Assembly: GCA_964447765.1 (NCBI GenBank)
Contig: CAYUTO010000002.1
Location: forward strand, 38,955 to 102,954
DNA: 64,000 nucleotides
Source: an uncultured Gammaproteobacteria bacterium
GTDB taxonomy: Bacteria > Patescibacteriota > Patescibacteriia > Magasanikbacterales > UBA922
Direction of reading: 5' to 3'
A program made the translations under genes and the position numbers. Under the pieces are notes generated by a model. The model was not told the origin of the DNA. It saw only the letters and a program-made list of their open reading frames with translations, and made no database searches. This document shows positions 16,269 to 59,390 of this stretch, in pieces (within the stretch, counting starts at the first letter, position 1; each line of letters starts with the position of its first letter).

Positions 16269-16309
16269 TATAAAAAAATACTCAAGTAGAGTATATGATT
16301 GGGTCAGGG

Positions 16310-16341
16310 CTGGAGACTCGGGTGTGAAACCGAGTCTCCAG
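16310..16341 (-). terminator. Stable hairpin downstream of the lipoprotein gene (12-bp stem, no U-tract)
   Basis: ctggagactcgg-gtgtgaaa-ccgagtctccag. Confidence 0.4.
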
Positions 16342-16370
16342 TTCAGAAGTGTGCTGTCGACGAGCATCTG

Positions 16371-16889
16371 TCACCGGTAGAACGTGGTGAGCAGCGAAGA
16401 GCCTGGCAGGTCAGCTCGGACATCCTTTCGAATGAGGGCCTCTCCTTCGATGAAGAGATAGCTTGTATATTCGTGGATGCCTGAAGCCCATTGACTCGAC
16501 AGCGGTAGCGTCTTGCCGAAGAAGCGTTGTGTGCCGCAGCCGTCGCAGGCGAAGATGAGTTCGCACTGGTCGCCAGCAGCAGAGACCTGGACCGTGATCT
16601 CGAGTCGATCACCGTCGATCAGGTTGTTGTCGCTCTCGCACCACCAGATTCCCCGTAGGTCGAAGAGATCTTCGCAGAGGTCCTCGGCAGTGAGTGGTGG
16701 TGTGAACGTGTCATTTGTGGCGGTATCTGGGACCGCCGTGTAGGTGTCGGGCTGGTGGGGATCATCTCCCTTACCAGTGTCCGACGTATCGGTGGTAGTG
16801 ATTGGACCAGGTTCGACACCTGGATCCGAAGAGTCGCAAGCCGCCATCGCGAGGGCGGCAGCGATGACGGCAATCATCCTGCAGAGCAT
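16371..16889 (-). CDS. Lipoprotein (GC-rich island A); signal peptide with lipobox ALAMAAC
   Basis: MLCRMIAVIAAALAMAACDSS..., T/D/P-rich linker, 4 Cys. GAGGAG SD sits 8 nt upstream of the ATG. Local GC is far above the flanks. Confidence 0.6.
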   Translation of the reverse strand: MLCRMIAVIAAALAMAACDSSDPGVEPGPITTTDTSDTGKGDDPHQPDTYTAVPDTATNDTFTPPLTAEDLCEDLFDLRGIWWCESDNNLIDGDRLEITVQVSAAGDQCELIFACDGCGTQRFFGKTLPLSSQWASGIHEYTSYLFIEGEALIRKDVRADLPGSSLLTTFYR

Positions 16890-17158
16890 ATGCTCATCTC
16901 CTCAACAGTGGAAGCTTTCACTTAGCCGGAACCTACCGACAGAGTAATCACTCCAACATATCAAACCAATAAGATCGAGCTTATAAGGGCCTAATATGTT
17001 GGAGCGACGATACGATTTACGAAGGTACATTCTATGGCGATTAGACCATTTTTTTTGGGTTTTGTCAAGTTTTTATGGAATTCCTCCATAGGGCTTGAAA
17101 AAGAGTAGTATAATTGGTACACTCAACCTATCTTTTCTATAGATAAAATACATACAAT

Positions 17159-18925
17159 ATGTACCGAACGCATACATGTGGAGAGCTCTCAAAAGAAGCT
17201 GTGGGATCAGTAGTAACGCTCGCTGGATGGGTGAATAAACGACGTAAATTTGGAAATTTGGTATTTGTGGATTTGCGTGATCGATATGGTATTACCCAGG
17301 TAGTTTTTAACCCTGAAAAAACAAAAGAATTTGAGCTTGCTGAAAAATTGAAGTATGAGTATGTAATCTCAGTCACCGGGACTGTGGTTGCGCGTGATGA
17401 GAAGAACATTAACACGGAAATTCCGACCGGAACGATTGAACTCTTAGCAAGTGAAATCAAAATTCTCAGCGAAGCAGAGACCTTACCATTTGAAATTTTT
17501 GATTCAGGAAAAGGTGAAGAAGATGAAGAGCTTCGTTTGAAATATCGCTTTCTCGAACTTCGTCGTGAACGCCTCAAAGAAAATATTTTGTTTCGTGCAC
17601 GCATGATTGGGCACATCAGAAATTTCATGGAGTCACGAAATTTTGTAGATATTGCAACTCCGATTTTAACCGTGAGTTCTCCTGAAGGTGCTCGTGATTT
17701 TCTTGTTCCGTCACGTCTACACAAAGGAAAATTCTACGCACTTCCACAAGCTCCACAGCAATACAAACAACTTCTCATGGTTGCAGGATTCGATCGTTAT
17801 TACCAGGTAGCCCCTTGTATGCGTGATGAAGATCCTCGTGCAGATCGCTCACCCGGAGAATTTTATCAGCTGGATTGTGAAACGAGTTTCATGACGCAGG
17901 ATGAATTTTTTGCGCTCATGGAACCACTCTTTGTCGAGCTCACCGAAAAAGTCGCAGGAAAAAAAGTAAAATCAAAACCTTTTCCCCGAATTCCATTTCG
18001 AGAAGTAATGGAAACATACGGCAGTGATCGCCCTGATTTGCGGTATGATTTAAAAATGGTAGAAGTAACTGAATGGGCAAAGAAAAGCTCATTTGAAGTA
18101 TTTACCAAAGCCGATCATGTGCGGTTGCTCGTAATTCCAGGTGGAGACAAATTCACTCGAGCAGAAATCGACAATGAGTATACTGATGCGGCAAAGCGTG
18201 CACATGGCAAAGGGCTAGCGTGGATGAAATATGATGGTAGTGCATTCGATGGTGGTATCACCAAATTCTTTACAGAAGTTCAATTACAAGAATTAGTGCA
18301 GACTCAAAAACTAGAGGCTGGAAGTATTCTATTCTTTGCAGCAGACACATGGGAAGTGTCTTGCAAGGCACTTGGTGCAGTGAGAGATCTTGCGGGAAAA
18401 AAATTACAGCTCGCAGACGATAGTGAAATTGCATGGGCGTGGGTAGTTGATTTCCCATTTTACGAATGGAATGAGGATCAGAAAAAAATTGATTTTGCTC
18501 ACAATCCATTTTCCATGCCACAGGGTGGAATGGATGCACTTCTCAATCAAGATCCGCTTACGATCAAGGCATTTCAATACGATATTATTGCAAATGGTCT
18601 CGAGCTTTCAAGTGGGGCTGTACGAAATAAAGACGCAAGTCTCATGTATAAAGCATTTGAGATCGCAGGGTATGGACCAGAAGTCGTAGATAAGAAATTC
18701 GGCCACATGATTAAGGCCTTTAGCTATGGAGCTCCGCCTCACTGCGGATTTGCGCCAGGAATTGAGCGCCTCGTTATGCTTCTTCGAGGTGAAGATAATA
18801 TCAGGGCCGTTGTTCCATTCCCAAAGAACCAAAAAGCCGAAGAACCAATGGTTGGAAGTCCTGCAGAAGTAGAGGACGTGCAATTGAAAGAATTGGGAAT
18901 AAAAGTTGATATTACAAAAAAATAA
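17159..18925 (+). CDS. aspS: Aspartate--tRNA ligase
   Basis: MYRTHTCGELSKEAVGSVVTLAGWVNKRRKFGNLVFVDLRDRYG is an OB-fold anticodon-binding N-terminus. Class II motifs present (FRNE-like, GGAPPHCGFAPGIER). 588 aa. Confidence 0.9.
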   Translation: MYRTHTCGELSKEAVGSVVTLAGWVNKRRKFGNLVFVDLRDRYGITQVVFNPEKTKEFELAEKLKYEYVISVTGTVVARDEKNINTEIPTGTIELLASEIKILSEAETLPFEIFDSGKGEEDEELRLKYRFLELRRERLKENILFRARMIGHIRNFMESRNFVDIATPILTVSSPEGARDFLVPSRLHKGKFYALPQAPQQYKQLLMVAGFDRYYQVAPCMRDEDPRADRSPGEFYQLDCETSFMTQDEFFALMEPLFVELTEKVAGKKVKSKPFPRIPFREVMETYGSDRPDLRYDLKMVEVTEWAKKSSFEVFTKADHVRLLVIPGGDKFTRAEIDNEYTDAAKRAHGKGLAWMKYDGSAFDGGITKFFTEVQLQELVQTQKLEAGSILFFAADTWEVSCKALGAVRDLAGKKLQLADDSEIAWAWVVDFPFYEWNEDQKKIDFAHNPFSMPQGGMDALLNQDPLTIKAFQYDIIANGLELSSGAVRNKDASLMYKAFEIAGYGPEVVDKKFGHMIKAFSYGAPPHCGFAPGIERLVMLLRGEDNIRAVVPFPKNQKAEEPMVGSPAEVEDVQLKELGIKVDITKK

Positions 18926-18926
18926 G

Positions 18927-20579
18927 ATGAGTGTAATCATCGGTGCCATGTTTAAGAAATTTGTAAGTTCTTACATTTTTTTGATTATTTCAGGCGCCAT
19001 TGGTGCAGTATTTTTTTTGTTACTCTACAGCGAGCTACTCGATACGTCTTACATTGAGTGGACCTTGTGGATCGGGGGAGATCCATTCCAGCACTACATT
19101 GGCTGGGAATTATTCAGGGATTCTCCGTGGTCATTTCCGCTGGGGAATATTAGTCATTTAGTATATCCAAACGGCGTACCACTTACCTTCACTGACTCCA
19201 TTCCTCTGCTTTCATTTATTTTGAAATTATTTTCGACTTGGCTTCCATTTCCATTCCAGTTTGATGGCATCTGGATACTGAGTTGTTTTATTCTGCAAGG
19301 AATGTTTGGGTATCTACTTACCTATCACTATCTGCAGAAGAAAGCTTTGTCTGTAATTGGAAGTATATTTTTTATTTTGTCTCCGATTATGCTCTTCCGT
19401 CTCGGCGGACACTCAGCACTCGGAGCTCACTGGCTGATACTGTGGTCGTTGTGGTTGTTACTAAAAAATGGGAAAACCAGAATCTGGCAGTGGACTACAA
19501 TTTTAATATTGACGGTATTGATTCATCCGTACCTGCTATTTATTTGCGGAGCGTTATTTGTAGCAGATTTAGTGAGACGAATAATGCTGCTCAAAGTATT
19601 ATCAGCACAGAAAGGAAGTTTATTTTTTGGGATCGATGTCGCACTCGTGCTTCTACTTTCATGGGTAGTCGGGGTATTCTCGACTGGAAGCGGAGCAGCG
19701 CCCGGGTATGGAGTCTTCTCTCTTGATCTGAATAGTCTTATCAATCCCTATGGCTGGTCTACGATTATTAAAAACATGAATGTTCGTGAACCCAATGAAG
19801 GGTTTGCTTATCTGGGTCTTGGTGTCCTTATACTTCTAGGACTCTCTCTCTATCAGTTTGTACAGGATAAAAAATATACGAGCATTAAGGAAAAACTCCG
19901 CGAATGGTGGCCACTGATTTCTATTTCAGGAATCCTCATTATTCTTGCTATCTCAAATGTAGTTTCAGTATGGGGTAAAGAAATAGTACTTTTTCCATTA
20001 CCTGACAGTATTCGTGAAGGAATGATGGGTATTGTTCGGTCATCGGGCAGATTATTCTGGCCCGTGTATTACCTAATTGTACTTGCATCTTTTTTTGTCA
20101 TAAAAAAATCTCGTACGTATATTGCGTATGGTCTTATGATTTTTGCGGTTGCGGTACAGGTGTATGATTTCAAGGATAAGCTTTTGGAATTGGATAATTT
20201 TTATGAAGCAGTTGTGTGGCAAAATCCACTAGTTGATCCGTTTTGGAATCGCGCTGCCGAAGAAATAAAACATATTTCATTTGTACCTTCGTATGTACCA
20301 GGAACCTATGAAGCAATTGCATTTTTTGCTGCAGAACATAATATGACATTGAATACAGGGTATGTAGTACGAGCAGCAGGACTTCTCAATAAAGATTTTA
20401 TGGATGCAGAAGTTCGTTCTCTCGAAGAGGGTATCGTTGCGGACAACACACTTTATATGTTTCTTAATGAAAAAACAGCACATGAAATGACTGAGAAAGT
20501 TGATGAATCACTCTACGCGGTAAAAATAATTGATGGGTATGCAATTCTTGCACCAGTCGATTTGTTAATCGAGAAATAA
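18927..20579 (+). CDS. Polytopic integral membrane protein, putative GT-C-type glycosyltransferase
   Basis: More than 10 predicted TM helices with large loops. Directly upstream of a GT2 gene. Start moved to the Met just after the aspS stop. Confidence 0.4.
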   Translation: MSVIIGAMFKKFVSSYIFLIISGAIGAVFFLLLYSELLDTSYIEWTLWIGGDPFQHYIGWELFRDSPWSFPLGNISHLVYPNGVPLTFTDSIPLLSFILKLFSTWLPFPFQFDGIWILSCFILQGMFGYLLTYHYLQKKALSVIGSIFFILSPIMLFRLGGHSALGAHWLILWSLWLLLKNGKTRIWQWTTILILTVLIHPYLLFICGALFVADLVRRIMLLKVLSAQKGSLFFGIDVALVLLLSWVVGVFSTGSGAAPGYGVFSLDLNSLINPYGWSTIIKNMNVREPNEGFAYLGLGVLILLGLSLYQFVQDKKYTSIKEKLREWWPLISISGILIILAISNVVSVWGKEIVLFPLPDSIREGMMGIVRSSGRLFWPVYYLIVLASFFVIKKSRTYIAYGLMIFAVAVQVYDFKDKLLELDNFYEAVVWQNPLVDPFWNRAAEEIKHISFVPSYVPGTYEAIAFFAAEHNMTLNTGYVVRAAGLLNKDFMDAEVRSLEEGIVADNTLYMFLNEKTAHEMTEKVDESLYAVKIIDGYAILAPVDLLIEK

Positions 20580-20584
20580 AGCAT

Positions 20585-21322
20585 ATGGAAAAATCGCGAG
20601 CGATAATTATTCCCGTGTATAATGGGGCACCATACTTATCTGAAACATTTCGAGAATTGGGTCAGTTGGTAAACAATCATCAGATTATTTTTGTTGACGA
20701 TGGAAGTATCGATGATACAGGGGTGCTTTTGGAAAAATTCTATACAGAAAATGCGTCTTCGGTTGCGATTGTGACTTATACAAAAAACATGGGTAAAGGG
20801 TATGCGATACGCGAAGGATTAAAGAAGGTGGGTGAAGGGTGTAAGGTGGTAGCATTCACTGATGTAGAAATTCCTTATGGCGTTGAAGCTCTTCACTCTG
20901 GATTTCGTGTTCTTGAGGAGAGAGATGAATTATCATTTGTATATGGAACGAGAACTGCTGCAGAAAAGACTCAAAGTCAGTATTCAACATATCGAAAAAT
21001 TGGTACACGTTTGTTCAGGTTGTTATTGTCTCGAAAACTGAGAAATATTTCAGATACTCAGAGTGGTTTAAAAGTATTCAAGAAAAAAGCTGCAGAAAAA
21101 ATTTTTCCATTGATCAAAACAAATCGGTGGGTGTTTGATCTCGAGATTTTTCTGATTGCGGAAGAGTATAAAATGAACTATCAAGAATTGCCCGTACAAT
21201 TGAAACCGGCGTGCGTGACACGTAGGGGAGGGGTACACTTTGTGAAACACGGGTGGAAAATTGTAGCTGATATTATTCGTATTCGCTCCTATGCATCTCG
21301 CGGACTATATAAAAAAACCTAG
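20585..21322 (+). CDS. Family 2 glycosyltransferase (polyprenyl-phosphate sugar transferase-like)
   Basis: IIIPVYNGAPYLSETF...IIFVDDGSIDDTG... is a GT2 DxD region. 245 aa. Confidence 0.75.
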   Translation: MEKSRAIIIPVYNGAPYLSETFRELGQLVNNHQIIFVDDGSIDDTGVLLEKFYTENASSVAIVTYTKNMGKGYAIREGLKKVGEGCKVVAFTDVEIPYGVEALHSGFRVLEERDELSFVYGTRTAAEKTQSQYSTYRKIGTRLFRLLLSRKLRNISDTQSGLKVFKKKAAEKIFPLIKTNRWVFDLEIFLIAEEYKMNYQELPVQLKPACVTRRGGVHFVKHGWKIVADIIRIRSYASRGLYKKT

Positions 21323-22946: not shown

Positions 22947-22989
22947 CCCTTGCGAGCGAGGGTTATTTTTGCTAGACTAGACCGTACGT

Positions 22990-23676
22990 ATGGATATAAA
23001 AGTAGGACAATTTAGCGGTCCGCTTGATCTGTTGCTCGGGCTTATTCAGGAAGAGAAATTGGAAATCAGCGAGGTTTCCATGTCCAAGGTAACAGAGCAG
23101 TTTCTTCTGTATCTGGAAAAGCTCGAAGAAACAGATGCAGTTGAACTTGCAGATTTTCTGGTAGTCGCTGCAAAATTGTTGTTTGCAAAATCAAAACATT
23201 TGTTATCTTCGATTGAGCCAGATGAAGAGGAAGGACCTCCGTTGGAAGAACAATTGAGGCTATATAGACTATTTGTTGAAACGAGTAAGAAAATAGACGC
23301 GCTATGGCTAGGGCCATTTCATAGTTATGTGAGAATTGAGGAGCCACGACTTCCAACGTCTATTCCAGTTCCTGAAAATCTTACACTGAATAATTGGAGT
23401 CTTTCAATTGCAAATCTCCTCAAACGTTTGTCACCTCCGAAAGCATTGCCTGAAACACGAATTGATCGTACCGTTTCACTGAAAGAAACTATATCACGCT
23501 TGAAAAAATTATTAGAAGTAGAAGGGGCTACGAAGTTTTCAGATATTTTAGGAAGCAGTGCGACAAAAACAGAAATTATTGTGAGTTTTTTGGCACTTCT
23601 CGAATTAGTAAAACAGCGTGAGGCCGAAGTAAATCAAACAACTGCATTTTCAGACATTCACATTGCTAAAGCCTAA
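22990..23676 (+). CDS. scpA: Segregation and condensation protein A
   Basis: MDIKVGQFSGPLDLLLGLIQEEKLEISEVSMSKVTEQFL is the ScpA N-terminal signature. Confidence 0.85.
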   Translation: MDIKVGQFSGPLDLLLGLIQEEKLEISEVSMSKVTEQFLLYLEKLEETDAVELADFLVVAAKLLFAKSKHLLSSIEPDEEEGPPLEEQLRLYRLFVETSKKIDALWLGPFHSYVRIEEPRLPTSIPVPENLTLNNWSLSIANLLKRLSPPKALPETRIDRTVSLKETISRLKKLLEVEGATKFSDILGSSATKTEIIVSFLALLELVKQREAEVNQTTAFSDIHIAKA

Positions 23677-26377: not shown

Positions 26378-26455
26378 CCGCATACAAATGCGGCTGCGTG
26401 TGTTGGTAGGGAAAGGTCGAGCAGCGCGTTGTGTTGCGCTGTACTCGACCTTTCC
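26378..26455 (-). terminator. Tandem hairpins: an 18-bp GC-rich stem, then a ccgcat/atgcgg stem with a U-run. Terminator of island-B gene 1.
   Basis: ggaaaggtcgagcagcgc...gcgctgtactcgacctttcc (26409-26455), and ccgcatacaaatgcgg preceded on the plus strand by aaaaa. Confidence 0.65.
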
Positions 26456-26462
26456 TCGGTGT

Positions 26463-27068
26463 TCATCCTGCCTTCCGCGCATCTTGCGCAGGACTGAAGA
26501 TGAACTTTTCTTTTCCCCCGCGACCATGATAGGTGATCGAACCACTGGTGGTCTTCGCATTCTTACCTGTGCGATGCCAGGTGATGGTGGTACCAGGAGA
26601 CATTACGAGAAGAACTTCGTAGATTACTCCGAGGTAGGCGAGTCGGAGAGAATCTTTTCGCCACTTCTCTCCCGACGCAATAGTGATCACCTTGTTGTTC
26701 GTATCGAGCCAGGCTTTGCCTTGGTCGCCAGACTCAATATGGAGGAGGACGAGAACTTTGTCCTCGATCATCGACTTCAGCCACGGTTTGACGATGAGAG
26801 GTTTTCCATTCCCTCCAATCACCACCTCGGCTTCGGCGAGATAGCGGCGCTCGCCCCTCTGTTCCATGCCGTCTTGGTTGGCACGTGTGAAGGGTTCGCG
26901 GATTACCAGCTGTCGTTCAGTACTTAAACTGAGATGAACAAATGTGCCATGTCTTCGAGGTCCTACACCAATGGGGATTGCGAGTCCATCACTGTGTGTG
27001 AAGAGTTGGATCTTTGGAGTATGTTTGTTCGCTCCATCTCGTTGGACTTTGATATCACTGAAATACAT
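26463..27068 (-). CDS. Hypothetical protein (GC-rich island B, gene 1)
   Basis: ORF track 26463..27101. Internal ATG at 27068 has SD GGAGGgaacaATG. No recognisable motif. TTGACT-17-TATCCT promoter candidate upstream. Confidence 0.5.
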   Translation of the reverse strand: MYFSDIKVQRDGANKHTPKIQLFTHSDGLAIPIGVGPRRHGTFVHLSLSTERQLVIREPFTRANQDGMEQRGERRYLAEAEVVIGGNGKPLIVKPWLKSMIEDKVLVLLHIESGDQGKAWLDTNNKVITIASGEKWRKDSLRLAYLGVIYEVLLVMSPGTTITWHRTGKNAKTTSGSITYHGRGGKEKFIFSPAQDARKAG

Positions 27069-27164
27069 TGTTCCCTCCAAGGAAAATGGGTTTGGCTGCA
27101 CATAGGATACTATAAATAAGCTAAAAAGTCAAGGTTAAAGGGACGAAAAGTCTTGTGTATAAAC

Positions 27165-27250
27165 AAAAAACATCCCAGATTAATTAGGATGTTTTATTGA
27201 AGACCGGCACTACTTTATCTAAATTTTATTTAGACAAAGTAGTTGTGGCC
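27165..27250 (-). terminator. Two tandem hairpins. The first is followed by a U-run. Terminator of island-B gene 2.
   Basis: aaaacatcc...ggatgtttt stem plus tract; then ccggcactactttatctaaat / atttagacaaagtagttgtggccgg imperfect ~22-bp stem. Confidence 0.55.
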
Positions 27251-27313: not shown

Positions 27314-27814
27314 TTACGACCGGAGGAGGGTGAGGATGTTAGCGAGTCGGCTGCTGAAGCTTGTCGGCGGAGGGGCCAAGCGCTTCATGATGATCTCGAG
27401 AGCGAGAGTGAGCTTCGCCTTTGCTACTCGACCTTCGCCTTCGAAGTCGCCGAGGTAGAAGTGCAGGATGTCTGCTTGGTAAGGTCCGGTTATTTCATCG
27501 GCACTCCCTTCGTCTACTCGAGTGATCTTGATATAGAACACCCAGAGTCCATCGACTGAGGAGTCGTCGGAGGCATCGCCGGCTATGTTTGCCAGAGGAC
27601 CCCAGACAAATTTTTCTTCACGCTCCGTGAAGTTGCCCATTCCATTCGCGTTGCGCAGGTAGACCTGCACTTCACCACCTTCGCAGGTAGCGAGTCCGTT
27701 CAGAGGCTTCAATGCCTCGTGGAGTGAGCCGAGCCACTTTGCCAGAGCTGAGTCAGGACCATCCTGGCTTTCCAGAATGCCGGATTCTGGAAGAGGCACC
27801 GTGATACTTTTCAT
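27314..27814 (-). CDS. Hypothetical protein (GC-rich island B, gene 2)
   Basis: The ORF track extends it to 28084, but that N-terminus overlaps tRNA-Leu. First ATG beyond the tRNA is at 27814. TTGACA-17-TAATTT promoter candidate at ~27860-27890. Confidence 0.45.
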   Translation of the reverse strand: MKSITVPLPESGILESQDGPDSALAKWLGSLHEALKPLNGLATCEGGEVQVYLRNANGMGNFTEREEKFVWGPLANIAGDASDDSSVDGLWVFYIKITRVDEGSADEITGPYQADILHFYLGDFEGEGRVAKAKLTLALEIIMKRLAPPPTSFSSRLANILTLLRS

Positions 27815-27902
27815 TGTCTGTCCATTGTAGAAAGTGCATACCGAGATTCGGCATGGTCGAGAACGACCTATGAAATTATCAGCTTCTCTTCTTTTTGTCA
27901 AG

Positions 27903-27936: not shown

Positions 27937-28020
27937 TTCTCATTAGTGCCCAGAGAGAGAATCGAACTCTCACGATATTGCTATCACGGGATTTTGAGTC
28001 CCGCGTGTCTACCAATTCCA
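27937..28020 (-). tRNA. tRNA-Leu (anticodon CAA), type II with a long variable arm
   Basis: Reverse complement GCCCAGATGGTGGAATTGGTAGACACGCGGGACTCAAAATCCCGTGATAGCAATATCGTGAGAGTTCGATTCTCTCTCTGGGCA; anticodon loop CTCAAAA. Confidence 0.8.
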
Positions 28021-28116
28021 CCATCTGGGCATTTTTCACACCATTGGTGAAGATGAGTATAGCCTTTACTCGTACACTTGTCAACGATATGCTATACTGT
28101 ATGAAGCAAAATACCT

Positions 28117-30094: not shown

Positions 30095-31603
30095 TTGAAT
30101 AATATGCCGAAAAGAAATAGAAATGAGACAATTGATGGGTTGATCGAGCTCGTCCGTGGGTATAATCCCAAGGCTGATTTTGATATGATCCGCCTGGCGT
30201 ATGATTTTGCAGAAGAAGCTCACCGCGGGCAGACCAGAAAATCAGGAGAGCCTTATATTACACATCCGCTATCAGCAGCATATATTTTGGCAGATATCCG
30301 TATTGATCCGGTTATTGTGATTGCAACCCTACTTCATGATGTGCCAGAAGATACGTCGCGCACACTTGAAGATGTTGAGAAGAATTTCGGATCAGAAGTT
30401 TCGTCAATGGTTCGAGGTATTACGAAGCTCGGAAAATTGAAATACCGTGGTGTCGAGCGTTATATTGAAAATCTTCGCAAAATGTTTGTTGCGATGGCTG
30501 AGGATATTCGAGTGATGATTATCAAATTCGCTGACCGTATTCATAATCTGGAAACACTGGATGCACTTCCTCCTCAAAAAAGATATCGAATCGCGCTTGA
30601 GAGTCTCGAGATTTATGCTCCGATTGCCAATAGACTAGGAATGGATGATATCAAGGGTCAACTGGAGGATTTATCTTTTAAACATGTCTATCCAAAAGAA
30701 TATGAGCGAGTGAAGAAGATTCGTGATGAGCGTCTTCAGGGAAAAGAAAAATATGTTGCAACTATTATCAAGAGAGCTAATGAAGAATTGATCAAAGCGG
30801 GGATTACACCTATTTCAACCGAGGGTAGAAATAAACGTCTCTATAGTTTGTATCGCAAACTTATTCGTAAAAATAACGATATCAATAAAGTGTATGATCT
30901 TGTTGCGATTAGAATTGTCGTAAAAACCGTAGGCGAATGTTATGCAACATTGGGAATTTTGCACAACGTGTGGACTCCGATGAAAGGAAGAATCAAAGAC
31001 TATATCTCTCAACCAAAACCCAATGATTATCAGTCACTCCATACAAGTGTGTTTGGGGACGAAGGAGAGGTAGTGGAATTTCAAATTCGAACCGAGGAAA
31101 TGGATGAAAATGCTGAGTTTGGTATTGCTGCACACTGGCATTATACCGAGAGTGGTAGTCGTATGCCGTCACGAGAAATAAAATGGGTAAAGGAACTGGC
31201 AGAAATTCAGAAAGATATTTTGAACAAATTATCAGACCTTGAAGAAATCAAAGTTGATTTTCTCCAAAGCCGTATCTTTGTCTTTACTCCAAAAGGAGAT
31301 GTGATTGATCTGCCCGAAGGAGCAACTTCGATTGATTTTGCGTACCATATTCACTCTGAAATTGGAAACAAATGTACTGCAGCTATTGTGAACGATAAAA
31401 TGGTTTCCCTTGATACCGAACTGAATAATGGAGATGTGGTCGAAATTGTGACTGATAAGAATCGCAAACTCCCGAGCCAAGATTGGTTGAAAATTGTAAA
31501 GACACATAGTGCGAGAGAGCATATTCGAAACGCGTTGAAGCAAGACGGAAAAATGACGATTAGAAAACTTTTGAAGTCAGTCATGCCGGGAAAAAAAGGA
31601 TAA
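30095..31603 (+). CDS. rel: Small bifunctional (p)ppGpp synthetase/hydrolase of the RelA/SpoT family (HD + synthetase + TGS; no ACT domain)
   Basis: HD motif LLHDVPEDT. Synthetase region (YISQPKPNDYQSLHTSV, RTEEMDENAEFGIAAHW). TGS (IFVFTPKGDVIDLPEGATSIDFAYHIH). 502 aa. Confidence 0.85.
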   Translation: MNNMPKRNRNETIDGLIELVRGYNPKADFDMIRLAYDFAEEAHRGQTRKSGEPYITHPLSAAYILADIRIDPVIVIATLLHDVPEDTSRTLEDVEKNFGSEVSSMVRGITKLGKLKYRGVERYIENLRKMFVAMAEDIRVMIIKFADRIHNLETLDALPPQKRYRIALESLEIYAPIANRLGMDDIKGQLEDLSFKHVYPKEYERVKKIRDERLQGKEKYVATIIKRANEELIKAGITPISTEGRNKRLYSLYRKLIRKNNDINKVYDLVAIRIVVKTVGECYATLGILHNVWTPMKGRIKDYISQPKPNDYQSLHTSVFGDEGEVVEFQIRTEEMDENAEFGIAAHWHYTESGSRMPSREIKWVKELAEIQKDILNKLSDLEEIKVDFLQSRIFVFTPKGDVIDLPEGATSIDFAYHIHSEIGNKCTAAIVNDKMVSLDTELNNGDVVEIVTDKNRKLPSQDWLKIVKTHSAREHIRNALKQDGKMTIRKLLKSVMPGKKG

Positions 31604-31696: not shown

Positions 31697-31972
31697 TCAG
31701 TGATGGCTGGTATGTGTGTGTTTCTTTTTTTCGTCCTTCTTCTTGTCCTCCAGTTCAGAAATCTTCTCGAAGGGGTACATGATCGCTTCCCCTATACTCG
31801 GTGTGAAACCGACTGTGACTAGGAAGAACATTCCTAGAACGAAGTTTACATCAAAGAAACAATATGTGATGTACAGCGCCACGATTCCGAACCATGGGAA
31901 CTTGGCCCCTTCTTTCTTCTTCTTTTTCTTCTTCTTGGCTTTGGAGCCGTGACCGTGTGCGTCGTGAGACAA
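31697..31972 (-). CDS. Small 2-TM membrane protein with His-rich termini and a K8 tract (island C, gene 3)
   Basis: MSHDAHGHGSKAKKKKKKKKEG...HTHTSHH. TTG start preceded by GGAGGtgtcta. GC is elevated relative to the flanks. Confidence 0.5.
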   Translation of the reverse strand: MSHDAHGHGSKAKKKKKKKKEGAKFPWFGIVALYITYCFFDVNFVLGMFFLVTVGFTPSIGEAIMYPFEKISELEDKKKDEKKKHTHTSHH

Positions 31973-31982
31973 TAGACACCTC

Positions 31983-32228
31983 CTATGGAGTGGGTGTGTT
32001 CCTTGATTGGTACTCTCTCCAGAGCCAGACGCAGAGCCAGCCGAGGAGAGTGAATACTAGGATACACAGATTGATGAATGCCTGGATCATCCACGCCACG
32101 ATGGCGAAGGTGATGAATACACAGAATCCGATTGGTCCAGAGTTCAACGCGAGGTTGAGCAATATGACGAACATCCCTATCTTGATCCATGGAATATCCA
32201 TCTGTATACGTTCTTTTTTACGGAACAC
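31983..32228 (-). CDS. Small 2-TM membrane protein (island C, gene 2)
   Basis: Hydrophobic helices FVILLNLALNSGPIGFCVFITFAIVAWMI and LCILVFTLLGWLCVWLW. GTG start with AAGGAG 5 nt upstream. The ORF track starts 2 codons earlier. Confidence 0.45.
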   Translation of the reverse strand: MFRKKERIQMDIPWIKIGMFVILLNLALNSGPIGFCVFITFAIVAWMIQAFINLCILVFTLLGWLCVWLWREYQSRNTPTP

Positions 32229-32239: not shown

Positions 32240-32464
32240 CTATTTTGATTTGAGAGTCTTCTCACGTTTGGATATTACTGCACCTAAGAGGACTATGAGC
32301 GGGGAGATGAGGAACTTGGCGATGCCTCGTAGTGTCGGCGGATGATTGTGAAACATTCCGGCGGACAGAGAGTTGGCGAAGTCCATCATGCCTAGCATCA
32401 CAGAACAGATGATGCATGTAATCAGGTAACCTATGATCAAAAGGACAATGACACCCGTCATCAT
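32240..32464 (-). CDS. Small 2-TM membrane protein (island C, gene 1)
   Basis: MMTGVIVLLIIGYLITCIICSVMLGMM...LISPLIVLLGAVIS. AAGGAGAcggat-ATG SD. Confidence 0.5.
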   Translation of the reverse strand: MMTGVIVLLIIGYLITCIICSVMLGMMDFANSLSAGMFHNHPPTLRGIAKFLISPLIVLLGAVISKREKTLKSK

Positions 32465-41623: not shown

Positions 41624-41695
41624 GCACTCGTCGTTTAATGGATAGGACACTAGCTTGCGGAGCTGGTAATCGTGGTTCGATTCCACGCGAGTGCA
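41624..41695 (+). tRNA. tRNA-Arg, anticodon read as GCG (unusual; bacteria normally encode ACG)
   Basis: GCACTCGTCGTTTAATGGATAGGACACTAGCTTGCGGAGCTGGTAATCGTGGTTCGATTCCACGCGAGTGCA. Anticodon stem CTAGC/GCTGG, loop TTGCGGA. D-arm GTTTAATGGATA is shared with the other two Arg tRNAs in the window. Confidence 0.65.
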
Positions 41696-41699
41696 CACT

Positions 41700-41802: not shown

Positions 41803-42270
41803 ATGGAATCTGAAAAGTCTAAAATACCTCAATGGGCAAAGGGGTTTATTCTAAAAAAAGGAGGTACAGGGATTGTAGAGTATCGGAACAAGCAATACGA
41901 GTATGTGGTCCTGAAAAGGGGGATGATACCAGGTCTTTTGAATTTCGTCGGATTTGTCGAGAGCAGCAATTTTCTGTATATCTCTGAAGATGTTCCAGTC
42001 AAATACCGAAAATATGTGCTCAGGCACGAGCTTCGAAAGTGTCTAGGATACGGCGGAAGTGGTAAAGAAAAGTGCCGTAGGTCGCTTGAAGCAGAGTTGA
42101 AAGAAGTTCCTGACGCACTCAAAAGAAGGTATATCTGGTGGCGATTCAGATCTTTCAATAATCTGTTTTGGTATTACAGTGAAGGACCAGGAAGAGTGGC
42201 GTATAACGAGAAATGTCTATATGAAATTCTCGGGAGCCTGCTTTTTCTTGAAAGTGCTCTAAATGCATAG
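41803..42270 (+). CDS. Hypothetical protein encoded between two tRNA-Arg genes
   Basis: 155 aa. Strong SD (aggaggggatATG). No recognisable catalytic motif (HELRK has no second His). Followed by a GC-rich hairpin terminator gcgcgtatgg...ccatgcgcgc. Confidence 0.5.
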   Translation: MESEKSKIPQWAKGFILKKGGTGIVEYRNKQYEYVVLKRGMIPGLLNFVGFVESSNFLYISEDVPVKYRKYVLRHELRKCLGYGGSGKEKCRRSLEAELKEVPDALKRRYIWWRFRSFNNLFWYYSEGPGRVAYNEKCLYEILGSLLFLESALNA

Positions 42271-42334: not shown

Positions 42335-42406
42335 GTCCTCGTAGGTTAATGGATAGACCTCTGGCCTCCGAAGCCGGAAATTCAGGTTCGACTCCTGACG
42401 GGGACA
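42335..42406 (+). tRNA. tRNA-Arg (anticodon CCG)
   Basis: GTCCTCGTAGGTTAATGGATAGACCTCTGGCCTCCGAAGCCGGAAATTCAGGTTCGACTCCTGACGGGGACA; anticodon loop CTCCGAA. Confidence 0.8.
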
Positions 42407-42445
42407 CAACGTAAAAATCCTTGCGGATTCACGTTGTGATACGCA

Positions 42446-45778: not shown

Positions 45779-45815
45779 TGGTGTGTAGATACGTCAAAAG
45801 AGTGGAAAATCGTCC

Positions 45816-45854
45816 CCAGTTTGCATTGACAAACTGGGTTTTTTTGTGTATACT
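45816..45854 (+). promoter_or_regulatory. recG rho-independent terminator whose loop contains the -35 box of a consensus promoter TTGACA-17-TATACT driving the island-D gene
   Basis: ccagtttg-cattga-caaactgg then gttttttt. TTGACA at ~45826 and TATACT at ~45849. Confidence 0.65.
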
Positions 45855-45919: not shown

Positions 45920-46405
45920 TTGAAAGAATCGGTTCTCAATCGGATCAACAAGATGTCCTATGAGGAGGGTGCCAACCTCCTCACGAACCTCCGCCTGAAC
46001 GCGATCCCTCCGTACCGTCTCCACACCCACCCCGTCGAGTTCACGATCCACACCTTCGGCGTCGACTGCGAGGCCAGGGTCAAGTCGGACACGATGGATA
46101 CGCGTCGTGCCATGAGTGATCTCGGCATGCCGCGGGTCCAGGAGATCGCCAACACGATCTACTTGCACCCGACGCTCGGGGAGGATGCTCTGAACGCGAT
46201 GCTCGACGGCAAACGTGTCGTGATCAACGTCCAGCGTCACCCGAAGACGGAGACGAAGCCCGCGATGCAGGCGGTTCCGATGGCGCCGGTCGAGGTCATC
46301 GCCTCGGTGCTCGACGACGTGCCGGAGGACAAGAGCAAGAAGAAGGTCGAGAACAAGTCTCGGCGCAAGCAGCAGCCCGCGGTCTCCGCGGAATTGCTCC
46401 ACTAG
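45920..46405 (+). CDS. Hypothetical protein (GC-rich island D, ~65% GC). TTG start with AGGAG SD.
   Basis: ORF track 161 aa. AGGAG sits 7 nt upstream of TTG. Opposite-strand ORF 45794..46492 is Arg-rich, typical of an antisense artefact in GC-rich DNA. Confidence 0.55.
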   Translation: MKESVLNRINKMSYEEGANLLTNLRLNAIPPYRLHTHPVEFTIHTFGVDCEARVKSDTMDTRRAMSDLGMPRVQEIANTIYLHPTLGEDALNAMLDGKRVVINVQRHPKTETKPAMQAVPMAPVEVIASVLDDVPEDKSKKKVENKSRRKQQPAVSAELLH

Positions 46406-46558
46406 GTCAAATGATCTAGTAAGAGAAGCAGGCGGTCGCCCATGGCGACTGTCCTGCGTCTCGAATACAAAATCCACACTCGAATCACGCAATAAGTCTC
46501 ATCTATATGGGAACTATCGCGGGAGGGCGAGTGTGGATTTTTGTTTTGCAGTGTATTA

Positions 46559-46628: not shown

Positions 46629-47000
46629 TTAAGTAGTTAACTGAGAAGAAATATTGCAGGCATTTTTTATTTTCTCTATTACACTTTCTCTTTCAAATAA
46701 TACTTTATCATTTTTAAATCGTATTATTTTGAATCCTTTATTTTTTAGAAAATTTTCTCGTCGGCGATCATATTCTTTCTGTTCGTCATGAACCGGTCCA
46801 TCGAGTTCGATTACCAATCTAAATTCATGACAATAAAAATCAACAATAAATGATCCAATACTGTATTGTCTTCTAAATCTTATTCCTATTTTTCCACCAT
46901 ACAATTCTCGCCAGAGTATTTGCTCAGCCTTGGTCGGATTTTTTCGAAGTAATTTTCTCTTATTAATTAAAGAACGTTTGTTTGAATAAACATACGGCAT
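46629..47000 (-). CDS. DUF559 endonuclease-domain protein (Vsr/MutH-like restriction endonuclease fold)
   Basis: LWRELYGGKIGIRFRRQYSIGSFIVDFYCHEFRLVIELDGPVHDEQ...ENFLKNKGFKIIRFKNDKVL matches DUF559. AAGGAGGG SD. Confidence 0.7.
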   Translation of the reverse strand: MPYVYSNKRSLINKRKLLRKNPTKAEQILWRELYGGKIGIRFRRQYSIGSFIVDFYCHEFRLVIELDGPVHDEQKEYDRRRENFLKNKGFKIIRFKNDKVLFERESVIEKIKNACNISSQLTT

Positions 47001-52605: not shown

Positions 52606-52649
52606 ACCACGTAGGGAATCAGAGAGAAAATAATTTCTAATTATTTATC

Positions 52650-53786: not shown

Positions 53787-53787
53787 A

Positions 53788-56373: not shown

Positions 56374-56530
56374 AGGGCATTAGTCAGAAAGTCGAAAGTA
56401 AAATACGCAACTTATTGCGTCTAGTATGGTAGGTAGTATATACTGTTTTTACATCAAAATCAATCAGGATAAAGCCTAAAAGGCTAATGCAACTTAAAAA
56501 GCTCTAAATTAACCAGACAACCAGAAAAAT

Positions 56531-57892
56531 ATGCATCCCAAACACATATTCAAAGCCTACGATATTCGTGGACTCGCTGAATCAGAACTTTCAGAAGAAC
56601 TCGCATGGTCAGTAGGTCATGCATTTGCACATATACTTGAAAAAAACGGAGTAGCATTGTCGGACCGGTCTATCGTAGTTGGTTATGACATGAGACCGAC
56701 GAGCATTCCATTTGCCAAAAAAGTAATTGAAGGAATCCAGGCGCACGGAGTGTCGGTCGTAGATATTGGGCTTACCTCGACTCCAGTATTTAATTTTGCG
56801 TGTGCGCATTACCCGGCTCATGCGGGGGGAATTATGGTGACTGCAAGTCACAATCCTGCAGAATACAATGGGTTCAAACTTACGTATGAAAATGGACTAG
56901 CATTGGGTACCGGAAGCGGGATGGAAGAGCTCCGTGATTTGATTATTTCCAATTATCGAGAAGAAAAACCAGAAAAAGGAGGGTATACAACATATGCGGT
57001 AGTTGATGAATATATTGAATATATTTTGAGCTTAGTGGATACCTCAAAAATTAGACCCATGAAAATCGTGGTCGATGCGGGAAATGGAATGGCAAGTGTC
57101 TCAATTCCAAAATTACTCGAAAAACTTCCAGTCACTGTTGAGTATCTATTTCTCGAACCAGATGGGACATTCCCCAATCATGAAGCAAATCCGCTGAAAG
57201 AGGAAACACTGAGAGATCTGCAAAAGAAAGTAATAGAAAATAACGCAGATTTTGGATTTGCACTCGATGGTGACGCTGATCGTATTGGATTGGTGGATGA
57301 ATTGGGCCAAGTCGTTCCTGCGTCATTTGTTGGTGGGTTGGTAGGGCTTGAAATTTTAAAACTACATCCAGGAGCGCACATGTTCTACGATCTTCGTATG
57401 AGTAGGAGTGTCAAAGAATCATGGGAATCCCATGGGGCAACTACTGAAATATGCAAAGTAGGACATGCGAACATTAAGAAGATGATGAAAGATAAGAAGG
57501 CAGTATTTGCTGCTGAGTTGTCACTTCATTTGTTCTATCAAGATACGCATGATGTAGAATCAACTGATTTTTCATTACTACTCACCCTCCTTATGCTTTC
57601 GACATCGGAGACACCTTTGAGTGCGCTCTGGAAAACACTGGAGAAATATGCACATTCAGGTGAGATTAATTTTCATGTAGAACATACGGATGAGGTGATA
57701 CAAAAAATCACCGAACGTTTTTCAGACGCACAAATCAGTGAACTAGACGGAGTATTATTTGAATATCCGGAGTATTGGATTAGTGTGCGCAAAAGTAATA
57801 CTGAGCCAGTGCTCAGATTGAATGTCGAAGCGCATAATAAACAGAAGATGAATGAAATTGTTGAGGAGATTAGAGGGCTGATTGTACTTTGA
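56531..57892 (+). CDS. Phosphoglucomutase/phosphomannomutase (alpha-D-phosphohexomutase)
   Basis: Active-site TASHNPAEYNGFK. Mg-binding DGDADR. 453 aa. Confidence 0.85.
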   Translation: MHPKHIFKAYDIRGLAESELSEELAWSVGHAFAHILEKNGVALSDRSIVVGYDMRPTSIPFAKKVIEGIQAHGVSVVDIGLTSTPVFNFACAHYPAHAGGIMVTASHNPAEYNGFKLTYENGLALGTGSGMEELRDLIISNYREEKPEKGGYTTYAVVDEYIEYILSLVDTSKIRPMKIVVDAGNGMASVSIPKLLEKLPVTVEYLFLEPDGTFPNHEANPLKEETLRDLQKKVIENNADFGFALDGDADRIGLVDELGQVVPASFVGGLVGLEILKLHPGAHMFYDLRMSRSVKESWESHGATTEICKVGHANIKKMMKDKKAVFAAELSLHLFYQDTHDVESTDFSLLLTLLMLSTSETPLSALWKTLEKYAHSGEINFHVEHTDEVIQKITERFSDAQISELDGVLFEYPEYWISVRKSNTEPVLRLNVEAHNKQKMNEIVEEIRGLIVL

Positions 57893-57934
57893 GATGTGGA
57901 AAATTAAATAAGATTATTTATTGTCATAAAAAAT

Positions 57935-58666
57935 ATGTCTGAAAGAGGTGAGGGGTTTGATAGAAATAATTCTGAAAATGTACACGAAGAATCTGTGAAT
58001 GATATTTTTAACGAGTCGTCTGATAAAGAACCGAGACGTGCTTTGGTTGAAAAATTCCAGGGGTTGTATAGTAAGATTGATCAGCTAAAGTTTAAGGAGG
58101 AAAAAGAAATCGCAATTCAAAATTTTTATACTGCATTAGATACGTGGGCTCGTGAAAATGGAGTAGTATTTTCACCATTTGAAGGCGCAGAAAGCCCCCT
58201 CCTGAATAAAGGTGATATAGTGAGGCGTGATAATCCTGAGAGAGTGCTAGCACTACTTACAGGGCAGGAACCGATTCATATACAGCCACTGAACGAAGGA
58301 GACGCTAATGTGGCAACAGATGCGTATGAAGGTCTTAATCTTGCACTTACTGAAGGGTTCCATGGAAAAAATGTTGTCTCCATATACGGATTTCATCCAA
58401 ATAAAGATGCAAAGGTTGTTCAGGTGAAAAAACCCTCAGAAGATATGCGAGATCCAAAACGATTTCACTATATACGTTCATTTTCTGGAGAGGTGAATCC
58501 AGAAGATATTAGATTTGTGTTATTTCGGTTTCCGAGTGTTGGAGTTCCAGAAAGTGCATTGACTGAGTCAGAAGAAGAAAAACTAGAAGATGATATACCT
58601 TTGCGATATATATATCGGTCAATTTCCTTTCCAAAAGGAATTAACGGTCAACAAAAAACTCAATAA
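57935..58666 (+). CDS. Hypothetical acidic protein
   Basis: ORF track 243 aa. No recognisable motif. Confidence 0.45.
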   Translation: MSERGEGFDRNNSENVHEESVNDIFNESSDKEPRRALVEKFQGLYSKIDQLKFKEEKEIAIQNFYTALDTWARENGVVFSPFEGAESPLLNKGDIVRRDNPERVLALLTGQEPIHIQPLNEGDANVATDAYEGLNLALTEGFHGKNVVSIYGFHPNKDAKVVQVKKPSEDMRDPKRFHYIRSFSGEVNPEDIRFVLFRFPSVGVPESALTESEEEKLEDDIPLRYIYRSISFPKGINGQQKTQ

Positions 58667-58671
58667 AAACA

Positions 58672-58702
58672 GAAAGGCGTTTCCCCGAAAGGAAACGCCG
58701 TG
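58672..58702 (-). terminator. Terminator of the island-E operon (perfect 9-bp stem; U-run on the minus strand)
   Basis: ggcgtttcc-ccgaaa-ggaaacgcc, preceded on the plus strand by aaaaacagaaa. Confidence 0.65.
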
Positions 58703-58706
58703 TGGT

Positions 58707-58964
58707 CTACGGAGCAGATCGGACTAAGCCGACAAACTCTATAAACGGCAAGTGGTCGCAAGTGATCAAGTCCTGTTCGGACTCGGTCAGCTCGACAAAC
58801 CGCTTTGCAAGTACAGTGTCTAAGGTCATCTGAATTCGCTGATGCATTCGCACCCAGATCGCTCGGAGTGCTATTACGTCAGTCGAATCCGGCAAGAAAA
58901 TCGTCTCGGCCAATGCCTCGGAGATGATTGTCTGCCAAACGCTTTCTTCGCTAGAGTTACTCAT
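58707..58964 (-). CDS. Hypothetical small protein co-transcribed with the TraR/DksA-like gene (island E)
   Basis: MSNSSEESVWQTIISEALAETIFLPDS... AGGAGagagcatc-ATG SD. The ORF track extends it to 59078 in another frame, overlapping the zinc-finger gene. Confidence 0.4.
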   Translation of the reverse strand: MSNSSEESVWQTIISEALAETIFLPDSTDVIALRAIWVRMHQRIQMTLDTVLAKRFVELTESEQDLITCDHLPFIEFVGLVRSAP

Positions 58965-59269
58965 GATGCTCTCTCCTGGTCGGACTTTTCCAAATCGGAA
59001 AGGCATGAGACACAGAAACGAGTCTCCGGACGGTGCATCAATCTCTTGAATGAGATCGCTTCGTCGCACCGCTCGCAAACGCCGATGGTCCCGAATTCGA
59101 GCCGCTTCAAGGCGGCCTCCACTTCCGGGATCTCAATCGTCGTCTTGTGGGTACGGAGCTGCTCCAGCATGCTGGTGTCTCTTAAGGAGACCCAAACAGC
59201 CATAAGCTTGTCGCTTAGGCGGTTCTTGAGCTTCTGGAGCTCGACTTCGGTCATGATGTGCGTGGACAA
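58961..59269 (-). CDS. TraR/DksA family C4-type zinc-finger protein
   Basis: CERC-x17-CVSC spacing (CERCDEAISFKRLMHRPETRFCVSCL). AGAGGTGA SD. 102 aa. About 52% GC versus ~40% in the flanks. Confidence 0.65.
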   Translation of the reverse strand: MSTHIMTEVELQKLKNRLSDKLMAVWVSLRDTSMLEQLRTHKTTIEIPEVEAALKRLEFGTIGVCERCDEAISFKRLMHRPETRFCVSCLSDLEKSDQERAS

Positions 59270-59313
59270 AATTCACCTCTTTCGTGTAAAGGAACAAGTT
59301 AAGACAACAAAAG

Positions 59314-59349
59314 AATATATCATAAAATGACTATATTGTCAATAGTCAT
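59314..59349 (-). promoter_or_regulatory. Consensus promoter TTGACA-17-TATATT whose -35 lies in the centre of a 23-bp palindrome (atgactatattgtcaatagtcat). Promoter plus operator of the TraR/DksA-like gene.
   Basis: Read directly: palindrome 59327-59349; on the minus strand TTGACA at 59342-59337 and TATATT at 59319-59314. Confidence 0.6.
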
Positions 59350-59390
59350 TCTAAGAGAGGGGGAGGTTGGTTGAGGAAATGAGGGGGAGG

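Follow-up and report, generated by a model that had tools for sequence, protein, structure and literature searches.

A 64,000-nucleotide stretch of a Candidatus Magasanikbacteria metagenome-assembled genome (MAG; GenBank assembly GCA_964447765.1, contig CAYUTO010000002.1, positions 38,955 to 102,954 of the forward strand), here called the window, carries five short GC-rich segments among AT-rich housekeeping genes, which raises the question of whether these segments are foreign DNA or a native property of the genome. A preliminary description of the window took the first position and regarded them as mini-cassettes recently acquired from a donor of higher GC content that uses Shine-Dalgarno (SD) sites, such as a host, phage, or plasmid. 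Comparison with related genomes points to a different answer, in which the five segments are probably small autonomous accessory cassettes found throughout the lineage, which occupy fixed hot spots in the manner of the minimal mobile elements of Neisseria and carry fast-evolving genes. The segments are named islands A to E, and their nine cassette genes are A, B1, B2, C1 to C3, D, E1, and E2; L numbers designate the comparison loci.

Pfam searches and public gene tables identify rnc, nusB, ksgA, aspS, scpA/B, parA/B, rel, topA, dprA, recG, radA, clpC, PGM, htpX, lemA, and pheST as housekeeping genes in the window. Island A adjoins aspS, and island B is flanked by a Metallophos gene, tRNA-Leu, and parA; islands C, D, and E lie at rel/topA, recG/radA, and PGM/HtpX, respectively. 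The rel gene (30095-31603) retrieved 366 relatives among the GTDB genomes, with top protein identities of 98, 96, 93, 90, and 89%.

The overall GC content of the window is 41.7%, and background windows of 400 bp have a mean of 0.411, a standard deviation of 0.032, and a maximum of 0.497. The islands peak at 0.600 (A; z = 5.9), 0.560 (B; z = 4.7), 0.487 (C; z = 2.4), 0.632 (D; z = 6.9), and 0.540 (E; z = 4.0), so that the deviation is clear in the sliding-window profile and the five GC-rich segments first described are confirmed, with C weak in raw GC. The contrast is clearer still in the GC content of third codon positions (GC3), which averages 0.330 in the 43 other genes of the window (standard deviation, 0.042; maximum, 0.415) and reaches 0.66 in A, 0.61 in B1, 0.53 in B2, 0.87 in D, 0.74 in E1, and 0.57 in E2. 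Island C, marginal by raw GC, nevertheless has GC3 values of 0.61-0.64 in its three genes. The anomaly of the cassettes is mostly one of synonymous codon choice: AAG makes up 69% of lysine codons in the cassettes versus 19% in native genes, TTC 85% versus 26% of phenylalanine codons, and AAC 79% versus 22% of asparagine codons. The amino acid composition is native-like, with a glycine, alanine, arginine, and proline (GARP) fraction of 0.17-0.28 in cassette proteins versus 0.229 ± 0.025 in native ones. Codon periodicity is strong, and cassette D has GC values of 0.60, 0.36, and 0.87 at its first, second, and third positions. The noncoding transcribed parts of the cassettes have a GC content of 0.49 versus 0.35 in native intergenic DNA, a value of 0.49 to which hairpins and SD sites contribute.

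Expression signals also distinguish the cassettes. An SD core of at least 5 nucleotides at the proper distance was read in the sequence before eight of the nine cassette genes (GAGGAG for A, GGAGGG for B2, AAGGAG for C3 and C2, GGAGGTG for C1, AGGAG for D, AGAGGTGA for E1, and GGAGA for E2, with none for B1) but before only 2 of the 43 other genes, both of them accessory (41803-42270 and a DUF559 gene at 46629-47000). The proposed split between cassettes with SD sites and native genes without them is thus upheld, the two frequencies being far from similar. No 16S rRNA 3' end, where the anti-SD would lie, was found in any of the sequences examined. Both strands of the 64 kb were scanned with the promoter pattern TTGAC[AT]-N16-18-TAnnnT, and a general consensus scan ranks the same sites at the top. 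The pattern has eight matches, five at cassettes (B2, B1, C, D, and E) and one each at tRNA-Leu, tRNA-Arg, and topA. With five of the eight near-consensus promoters at cassettes and two at tRNAs, the cassettes use the strongest promoter type of the genome itself. The promoters quoted in the preliminary description were all recovered (TTGACA-17-TATACT at 45826 on the plus strand and, on the minus strand, TTGACA-17-TATATT at 59342 and TTGACA-17-TAATTT at 27901). Terminator-like hairpins close B1, B2, C, D, and E, as had been claimed for most units, whereas the hairpin after cassette A has no T-run and its terminator is shared. The view of the cassettes as self-contained transcription units with accessory, non-housekeeping content stands.

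In eight close relatives the island flanks are collinear, with 65-90% DNA identity, and the alignment breaks exactly at the islands. The matching spots in these relatives are also GC rich (0.47-0.52 overall, with peaks of 0.55-0.62), and GC3 stays at 0.49-0.87 in every cassette homologue of every genome compared. Conservation of the segments at the same loci with similar composition had been named at the outset as the finding that would speak against recent acquisition, and it is what is seen for A, B2, C1, C2, and D. Recent import from a higher-GC, SD-using donor fails for these genes, which have equally GC-rich syntenic homologues. The expected absence from the closest relatives holds for B1, C3, and the E operon, which are lineage gains or replacements, and does not hold for A, B2, C1, C2, and D. 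A metagenome contig scan with ClpC yielded only distant relatives (at most 57% identity), in which no cassette homologues were found.

Island B contains two transcription units, as follows.

26380..26462, minus strand: 3' untranslated region (UTR) of B2, with a long hairpin rich in GC and, after it, a terminator hairpin (CCGCA...TGCGG and a T-run)
26463..27068, minus strand: B2 open reading frame (ORF), 201 amino acids, all-beta (beta-sandwich) protein, SD GGAGGG
27104..27132, minus strand: B2 promoter, TTGACT-17-TATCCT, conserved in seven genomes
27167..27195, minus strand: B1 terminator hairpin
27314..27814, minus strand: B1 ORF, 166 amino acids, no SD, GC3 of 0.61, called with 166 amino acids on L162
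27873..27901, minus strand: B1 promoter, TTGACA-17-TAATTT, directly downstream of tRNA-Leu (27946-28030)

Homologues of B2 are present in L001, L003, L004, L007, L008, and L164, always beside the Metallophos gene, and are 31-55% identical to the copy in the window. Between the window and L001, protein identity is 98% for rel, 98% for ParA, and 92% for Metallophos, yet only 33% for B2. Along the DNA of the same pair, identity is about 85% at the promoter and only about 45% within the ORF until its final 40 coding bases, from which point it is again 80-97%. The stems of the 3' UTR covary in the seven-genome alignment. The B2 allele is 33% identical to that of L001 and 55% identical to that of L164, while the neighboring gene shows the reverse order (92% for L001 and 62% for L164). 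The whole family comprises seven clusters among 5.8 billion proteins. In L005, the B2 spot holds a GIY-YIG gene (at about 7500-7800). B1 is an insertion of about 850 bp, a segment missing from L001; no homologue was found in any comparison locus, and among the genomes compared it occurs only in this one. Two Logan contigs of run SRR12712865 (L161 and L163) break within D (window position of about 46313) and B1 (about 27370); these breaks could stem from allelic variation within the population or from poor coverage where GC is high.

The features of island A are a single gene and its downstream hairpin.

16310..16341, minus strand: hairpin downstream of cassette A, without a T-run and followed by a shared bidirectional terminator at 16229-16266
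16371..16889, minus strand: cassette A ORF, 172 amino acids, probable lipoprotein (signal peptide ending in ...LAMAAC), SD GAGGAG, GC of 0.58, GC3 of 0.66

A homologue with 40% identity and a GC3 of 0.65 adjoins aspS in L005. The DNA alignment between the two copies is confined to the 5' UTR and the signal-peptide codons, and the mature part does not align. Directly upstream of cassette A, and sharing the bidirectional terminator with it, lies an ORF of 3,019 amino acids (7155-16214, plus strand) in which no Pfam domain was found.

Island C consists of three genes behind one promoter.

31697..31972, minus strand: C1 ORF, 91 amino acids, membrane protein with His/Lys-rich ends, SD GGAGGTG
31983..32228, minus strand: C2 ORF, about 81 amino acids, small membrane protein, SD AAGGAG 5 nucleotides before GTG
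32240..32464, minus strand: C3 ORF, 74 amino acids, two predicted transmembrane helices, SD AAGGAG, called with 74 amino acids on L162
32497..32525, minus strand: promoter of cassette C, TTGACA-17-TATACT, 11 of 12 consensus positions, with TG

The corrected start of C3 is 32464, and that of C2 is probably 32228. C2 homologues occupy the same site in L002, L006, and L007 (49-54% identity, GC3 of 0.58-0.68), and members of a C1 family defined by a hidden Markov model occupy it in L001-L004 (GC3 of 0.52-0.63). No homologue of C3 was found in the other comparison loci, and it is known only from this genome. The gene content of the island is thus a mosaic across relatives. A public gene call places a 114-amino-acid ORF in another frame (L162 4879-5223, corresponding to window positions 31846-32190 on the minus strand), overlapping C2 and C1; the C1 and C2 frames are favored over this call because they are conserved across genomes.

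Cassette D comprises a promoter, an ORF, and a structured RNA at its 3' end.

45826..45854, plus strand: promoter of cassette D, TTGACA-17-TATACT, with the -35 box in the loop of the recG terminator hairpin (45815-45838)
45920..46405, plus strand: D ORF, 161 amino acids, TTG start, SD AGGAG
46424..46546, plus strand: 3' structured RNA made up of a short hairpin, then a conserved linker, then a long hairpin in three parts that ends with a T-run

The protein model of D has a helix-rich core of 110 residues without a fold match. A k-mer-based search found no relatives of D; four, with 120-130 amino acids, 37-51% identity, and GC3 of 0.56-0.87, were recovered when 1.84 billion representatives were scanned in full with phmmer. 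Two of these are located between recG and radA as in the window (L174 and L175), and two between the S20 gene and rmuC (L176-L179), in genomes of 32-34% GC; the D-type unit of promoter, D-family ORF, and 3' RNA is thus present at two different loci. All D copies have in common the promoter, a partly conserved 5' UTR, and a 125-nucleotide element directly after the stop codon. The promoter (TTGACA...TTTTTTGTnTATACT) is found in L171, L172, L174, L175, L176, and L179 as well.

The 3' RNA of cassette D has a minimum free energy of -60.2 kcal/mol (z = -9.0). Against Rfam, nothing reached a gathering score, and the matches were at chance level (E of at least 2), whereas a covariance model built on the element matches L171, L172, L175, L176/L178, and L179 with E values of 1e-22 to 1e-40. 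Across six sequences, 95% of the cells are paired, with compensatory changes in 10 of 40 pairs, counted in an alignment fitted to the model, which flatters the number. None of 500 shuffles reached these values, and slid controls were 37-57% paired. In L171 and L172 the RNA is also at the recG-radA spot, and the frame encloses other genes: an 83-amino-acid ORF of a family named X in L172, which shares 40% identity with the leading gene of the L175 two-gene unit, and a 138-amino-acid ORF unrelated to D in L171. One regulatory frame serves D, X plus D, X, or an unrelated 138-amino-acid ORF. This last ORF resembled D by eye, and was rejected as a relative by an hhalign probability of 0.8%. Beside cassette D lies a DUF559/Vsr-like gene (46629-47000, minus strand) with a GC content of 0.296 and a strong AAGGAGG SD.

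Island E is an operon of two genes.

58676..58699, minus strand: terminator hairpin of cassette E, 10 pairs, 6 of them GC
58707..58964, minus strand: E2 ORF, 85 amino acids, SD GGAGA; the corrected start at 58964 overlaps the E1 stop (ATGA), and the two genes are translationally coupled
58961..59269, minus strand: E1 ORF, 102 amino acids, DksA/TraR-type four-cysteine zinc-finger protein, SD AGAGGTGA, GC3 of 0.74
59314..59342, minus strand: promoter of cassette E, TTGACA-17-TATATT

E1 is the only one of the nine cassette proteins with a match in Pfam, PHROGs, PADLOC, or NCBIfam; no match to any of these was found for the other eight, E2 included. It matches Pfam PF01258 at 2.4e-9 (37.5 bits versus a gathering cutoff of 24.9), with a visible CxxC...CxxC, and further matches are NCBIfam DksA_like (6.5e-16, below cutoff), PHROG 54, and PDB 2kq9 (7e-6). 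The match to the equivalogs for RNA-polymerase-binding DksA fails (58.6 of 105 bits for NF033459 and 38.9 of 115.5 for TIGR02420), and no acidic tip of the DxxDxA type was seen in the sequence. As in the DksA/TraR family, the zinc finger of E1 is preceded by a helical region, but E1 is shorter, falls below all NCBIfam equivalog cutoffs, and is paired with the 85-residue E2. The same locus holds a HAD hydrolase gene in L168 (where ClpC is 98% identical), L169, and L172, and different genes in L171; this indicates that the E operon, together with a 243-amino-acid gene at its side, is a replacement in this lineage. The 243-amino-acid gene (57935-58666, plus strand) is native-like (GC3 of 0.25, no SD), has no family match, and is absent where the HAD hydrolase is present. 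Two copies of GAGGGGGAGGTT, 24 bp apart, lie in the interval from the htpX stop to the E promoter (59357-59392, plus strand). A PDDEXK_3 gene lies between lemA and htpX in L168 (6439-6849); like the DUF559 gene by D and the GIY-YIG gene of L005, it is a nuclease-type gene at a hot spot and may be a homing-type element.

How old the cassettes are bears directly on their origin. Their homologues are restricted to the close clade and are 30-55% identical, where rel, ParA, and Metallophos are 88-98% identical. Identity at fourfold-degenerate sites is 0.31-0.46 between cassette alleles versus 0.63 for rel (window versus L001), and this saturation means that the cassette alleles are older than the species or mutate faster. 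Because GC3 is nevertheless high in all alleles, it does not represent donor composition that has yet to ameliorate. A donor relic would decay, and a high-GC donor proteome would leave its mark on amino acid composition. Neither effect is observed, which indicates that the bias is maintained in place.

The pattern extends beyond this window. A survey of 2.08 Mb of Magasanikbacteria-like loci with a median GC below 0.47 counted 111 islands, defined as segments of 400 bp or more whose GC exceeds the local median by 0.10 or more; this is about one per 19 kb, and the median length is 525 bp. Four of them overlap tRNA genes, and none has rRNA motifs. Near-consensus promoters in or near these islands are 2.9-fold enriched (48 observed versus 16.5 expected; p = 5e-11), and their candidate ORFs are almost all singletons. 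GC-rich hypervariable cassettes are apparently general in this phylum, and a literature search found no description of SD usage or of GC-rich islands in it.

Under the preferred reading of native accessory cassettes at fixed hot spots, each unit would consist of a conserved frame, with a tRNA-grade sigma-70 promoter, a 5' UTR bearing the SD site, and 3' hairpins, around a variable short ORF. The ORF would turn over through exchange for very old divergent alleles, through gain or loss of whole ORFs, and occasionally through entry of an unrelated ORF. Homologous recombination in the conserved frame and in the flanking housekeeping genes is the most likely route for this exchange, and the sharp identity steps at the B2 ORF borders and the incongruence between alleles and species fit it. 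Small free-standing nuclease genes at the same spots (DUF559/Vsr-like, GIY-YIG, and PD-(D/E)XK) could supply the breaks. Judged by the quality of their promoters and SD sites, the cassettes are probably strongly expressed. Their products (a probable lipoprotein in A, small membrane proteins in C1 to C3, a beta-sandwich in B2, a DksA/TraR-like protein in E1, and otherwise unknowns) look like lineage-specific proteins, several of them situated at the envelope or interface and possibly under diversifying selection.

GC-biased gene conversion (gBGC) at these recombination hot spots is the preferred cause of the GC bias. It is favored because the bias extends regionally, UTRs included, affects mostly synonymous sites, and is found where hyperdivergence is seen. 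Bacterial gBGC has been reported to be widespread and links recombination to higher GC, chiefly at synonymous and noncoding sites and independently of codon selection (Lassalle et al. 2015; PMC4450053). The main alternative cause is that selection acts on the transcripts themselves, favoring stability or conditional translation. The regions of the cassette ORFs fold barely better than shuffles (z = -2.2 and -1.8).

Several points weigh against this account. To our knowledge, reported effects of gBGC in bacteria are far smaller than a shift of GC3 from 0.33 to 0.87; raising GC3 from 0.33 to 0.5-0.87 within units of about 500 bp would call for an effect both much larger and more local than those reported. 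Saturated synonymous sites would equally result if the mutation rate were raised locally. B1, C3, and E have no relatives in the loci compared, and a foreign origin is possible for these. Expression level is judged only from promoter and SD quality, the covariation count for the D RNA comes from the model-fitted alignment, and every genome compared is a MAG, with about 20 kb per relative.

A broader proposal appears tentative at best, namely, that dozens of hypervariable mini-cassettes per genome form a second class of genes, actively maintained in Magasanikbacteria and perhaps across the candidate phyla radiation, whose GC bias is functional or mechanistically driven and which encode the fast-evolving interface with hosts or phages. 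Such cassettes would combine a tRNA-grade promoter, SD site, and GC-ending codons on conserved RNA frames that include the new 125-nucleotide 3' RNA. Their GC content could be driven by nuclease-triggered biased gene conversion or by selection for unusually stable or conditionally translated transcripts.

The first rival to the preferred reading is the one originally advanced, that each cassette was recently transferred from a higher-GC, SD-using host, phage, or plasmid and has yet to ameliorate. Its appeal is the sharp difference in composition and SD usage from the core genome, to which the comparison adds that B1, C3, and the E operon are missing from the closest relatives, that E replaces the ancestral HAD hydrolase gene, that the family of E1 is common on phages and plasmids, and that island B abuts tRNA-Leu. 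Such transfer is nonetheless unlikely as a general explanation, because A, B2, C1, C2, and D have syntenic and equally GC-rich homologues with saturated synonymous divergence, the amino acid composition is native-like, and the promoters follow the tRNA-type consensus of the genome itself. No homologues were found in high-GC genomes when large protein databases were searched with B2 and D. Relatives of B2 and D were found only in Magasanikbacteria-like, AT-rich contexts, so that the search for the taxonomy of a donor yielded no lineage of matching composition, and no phage or viral copies. Neither the scanned proteins of the window nor the gene tables for the comparison loci showed an integrase or transposase domain, and neither attachment (att) sites nor flanking direct repeats were found around the cassettes, of which only island B adjoins a tRNA. 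The only units that may still derive from recent high-GC import are B1, C3, and E.

Repeated import from an unsampled and moderately GC-rich mobile pool of phages or plasmids of the candidate phyla radiation, with the frames serving as landing pads, is equally improbable. It would account for alleles that predate the species splits and disagree with the species tree, for the D unit at two loci and unrelated ORFs in the same frame, and for the high GC3 of every copy. Scans of 2.9 million viral contigs with E1, the D family, the B2 family, A, B1, and the 3' RNA motif, however, returned nothing, and a tblastn search of 50,697 phage records gave no cassette match. Every B2 or D homologue contig examined is of chromosomal housekeeping context, and the frames contain parts peculiar to the host, for instance the recG terminator joined to the D promoter.

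GC-rich islands in AT-rich genomes are classically RNA genes, and here both strands contain long ORFs and cassette D includes a conserved structured RNA. That the segments are structured noncoding RNA genes with ORFs arising by chance is nevertheless very improbable, given the codon periodicity, the in-frame conservation of the proteins across genomes while DNA identity is lost, the confident AF2 models, the weak folding of the ORF regions, and the lack of an Rfam match. An artefact of assembly or binning, with foreign GC-rich reads stitched into the genome, can practically be dismissed: the genome is a MAG and two Logan contigs break inside B1 and D, but independent assemblies of two runs, as well as the NCBI record, show identical cassettes joined to the same flanks, and homologous cassettes were recovered at these junctions in many independent MAGs.

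Among known systems, the native cassettes proposed here resemble several. The minimal mobile elements of Neisseria (Saunders and Snyder 2002, as used in PMC1797815 and PMC3787668) are alternative genes between conserved flanks, through which exchange presumably takes place by homologous recombination. The cassettes likewise present one to three alternative, unrelated, or highly divergent genes at syntenic sites with no mobility genes of their own, and alternative content between conserved flanks is seen at the E locus, the B2 spot, the presence or absence of B1, the mosaic of C, and the frame of D. They differ in keeping a conserved regulatory frame (promoter, UTRs, and 3' RNA) around the variable ORF, and in a persistent GC3-rich bias and SD sites that are absent from the rest of the genome. 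The identity steps at the B2 borders and the allele incongruence would be compatible with a route through DNA uptake.

Phage morons, described by Hendrix and colleagues, are reportedly single genes or small operons that differ from their neighbors in composition and have a promoter and terminator to themselves. The cassettes share the atypical composition and, according to consensus scans, the promoters and terminators. In contrast to morons, they are flanked by housekeeping genes and not contained in a prophage, E1 provides the sole PHROG match, and their homologues are syntenic across species with a composition that is maintained and not a relic. The cassettes are minimal-mobile-element-like or moron-like units, new in their persistent GC-ending codon bias, SD sites, and conserved RNA frames.

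The replacement flexible genomic islands of Rodriguez-Valera and colleagues are said to occupy fixed sites with divergent equivalent alleles, often for exposed structures, that are incongruent with the species tree; they reportedly span tens of kilobases, as in O-antigen clusters, and are usually low in GC. The cassettes are instead GC-rich single transcription units of 0.5-1.5 kb. Unlike integron cassettes, they have promoters at the units, no integrase, and no shared repeat, and no k-mer or uptake-like motif common to them was found. Diversity-generating retroelements differ as well, since no reverse transcriptase domain was found among the window proteins scanned and no template-like direct repeats by the cassettes, and the divergence of B2 spans the whole ORF and not a patch of about 100 bp.

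In base composition and codon usage unlike those of the host genome, the cassettes resemble the compositional genomic islands of Lawrence and Ochman. Such islands are routinely read as recent transfer, whereas here the signature is a long-lived property of native hypervariable loci, so that composition-based transfer calls in these genomes would mislead. If general, the pattern marks where bacteria of the candidate phyla radiation concentrate their fastest-evolving and probably most highly expressed lineage-specific proteins, and in uncultured organisms with small genomes such proteins are natural candidates for interaction with hosts or phages. The cassettes also offer an extreme natural test case for GC-biased gene conversion versus codon-usage selection in bacteria, and add a conserved RNA structure not described before, along with a clear division between SD and non-SD genes in a single genome.

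Some further features of the window and its relatives were observed. Many GTDB records of close relatives (L001, L004-L007, and others) are titled "uncultured Gammaproteobacteria bacterium" and are apparently mislabelled at source. At 5192-5566 (plus strand), and likewise in L164 (6048-6407), a 23S rRNA intervening-sequence protein (PF05635) is encoded by a free-standing gene amid housekeeping genes. A possible sixth accessory cassette, not GC rich, is a 155-amino-acid ORF at 41803-42270 (plus strand; GC of 0.417) with a perfect AGGAGG SD and no family match. It is located between tRNA-Arg(GCG) and tRNA-Arg(CCG), and the segment of about 1 kb that holds it is absent from L006 and L008. The window has three tRNA-Arg genes for CGN codons (2522-2596, 41624-41696, and 42335-42407, with anticodons TCG, GCG, and CCG), and no tRNA-Arg with an ACG anticodon was found in it; the GCG anticodon is unusual in bacteria. 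The C34 tRNAs that read G-ending codons are kept for Lys-CTT, Leu-CAA, and Arg-CCG.

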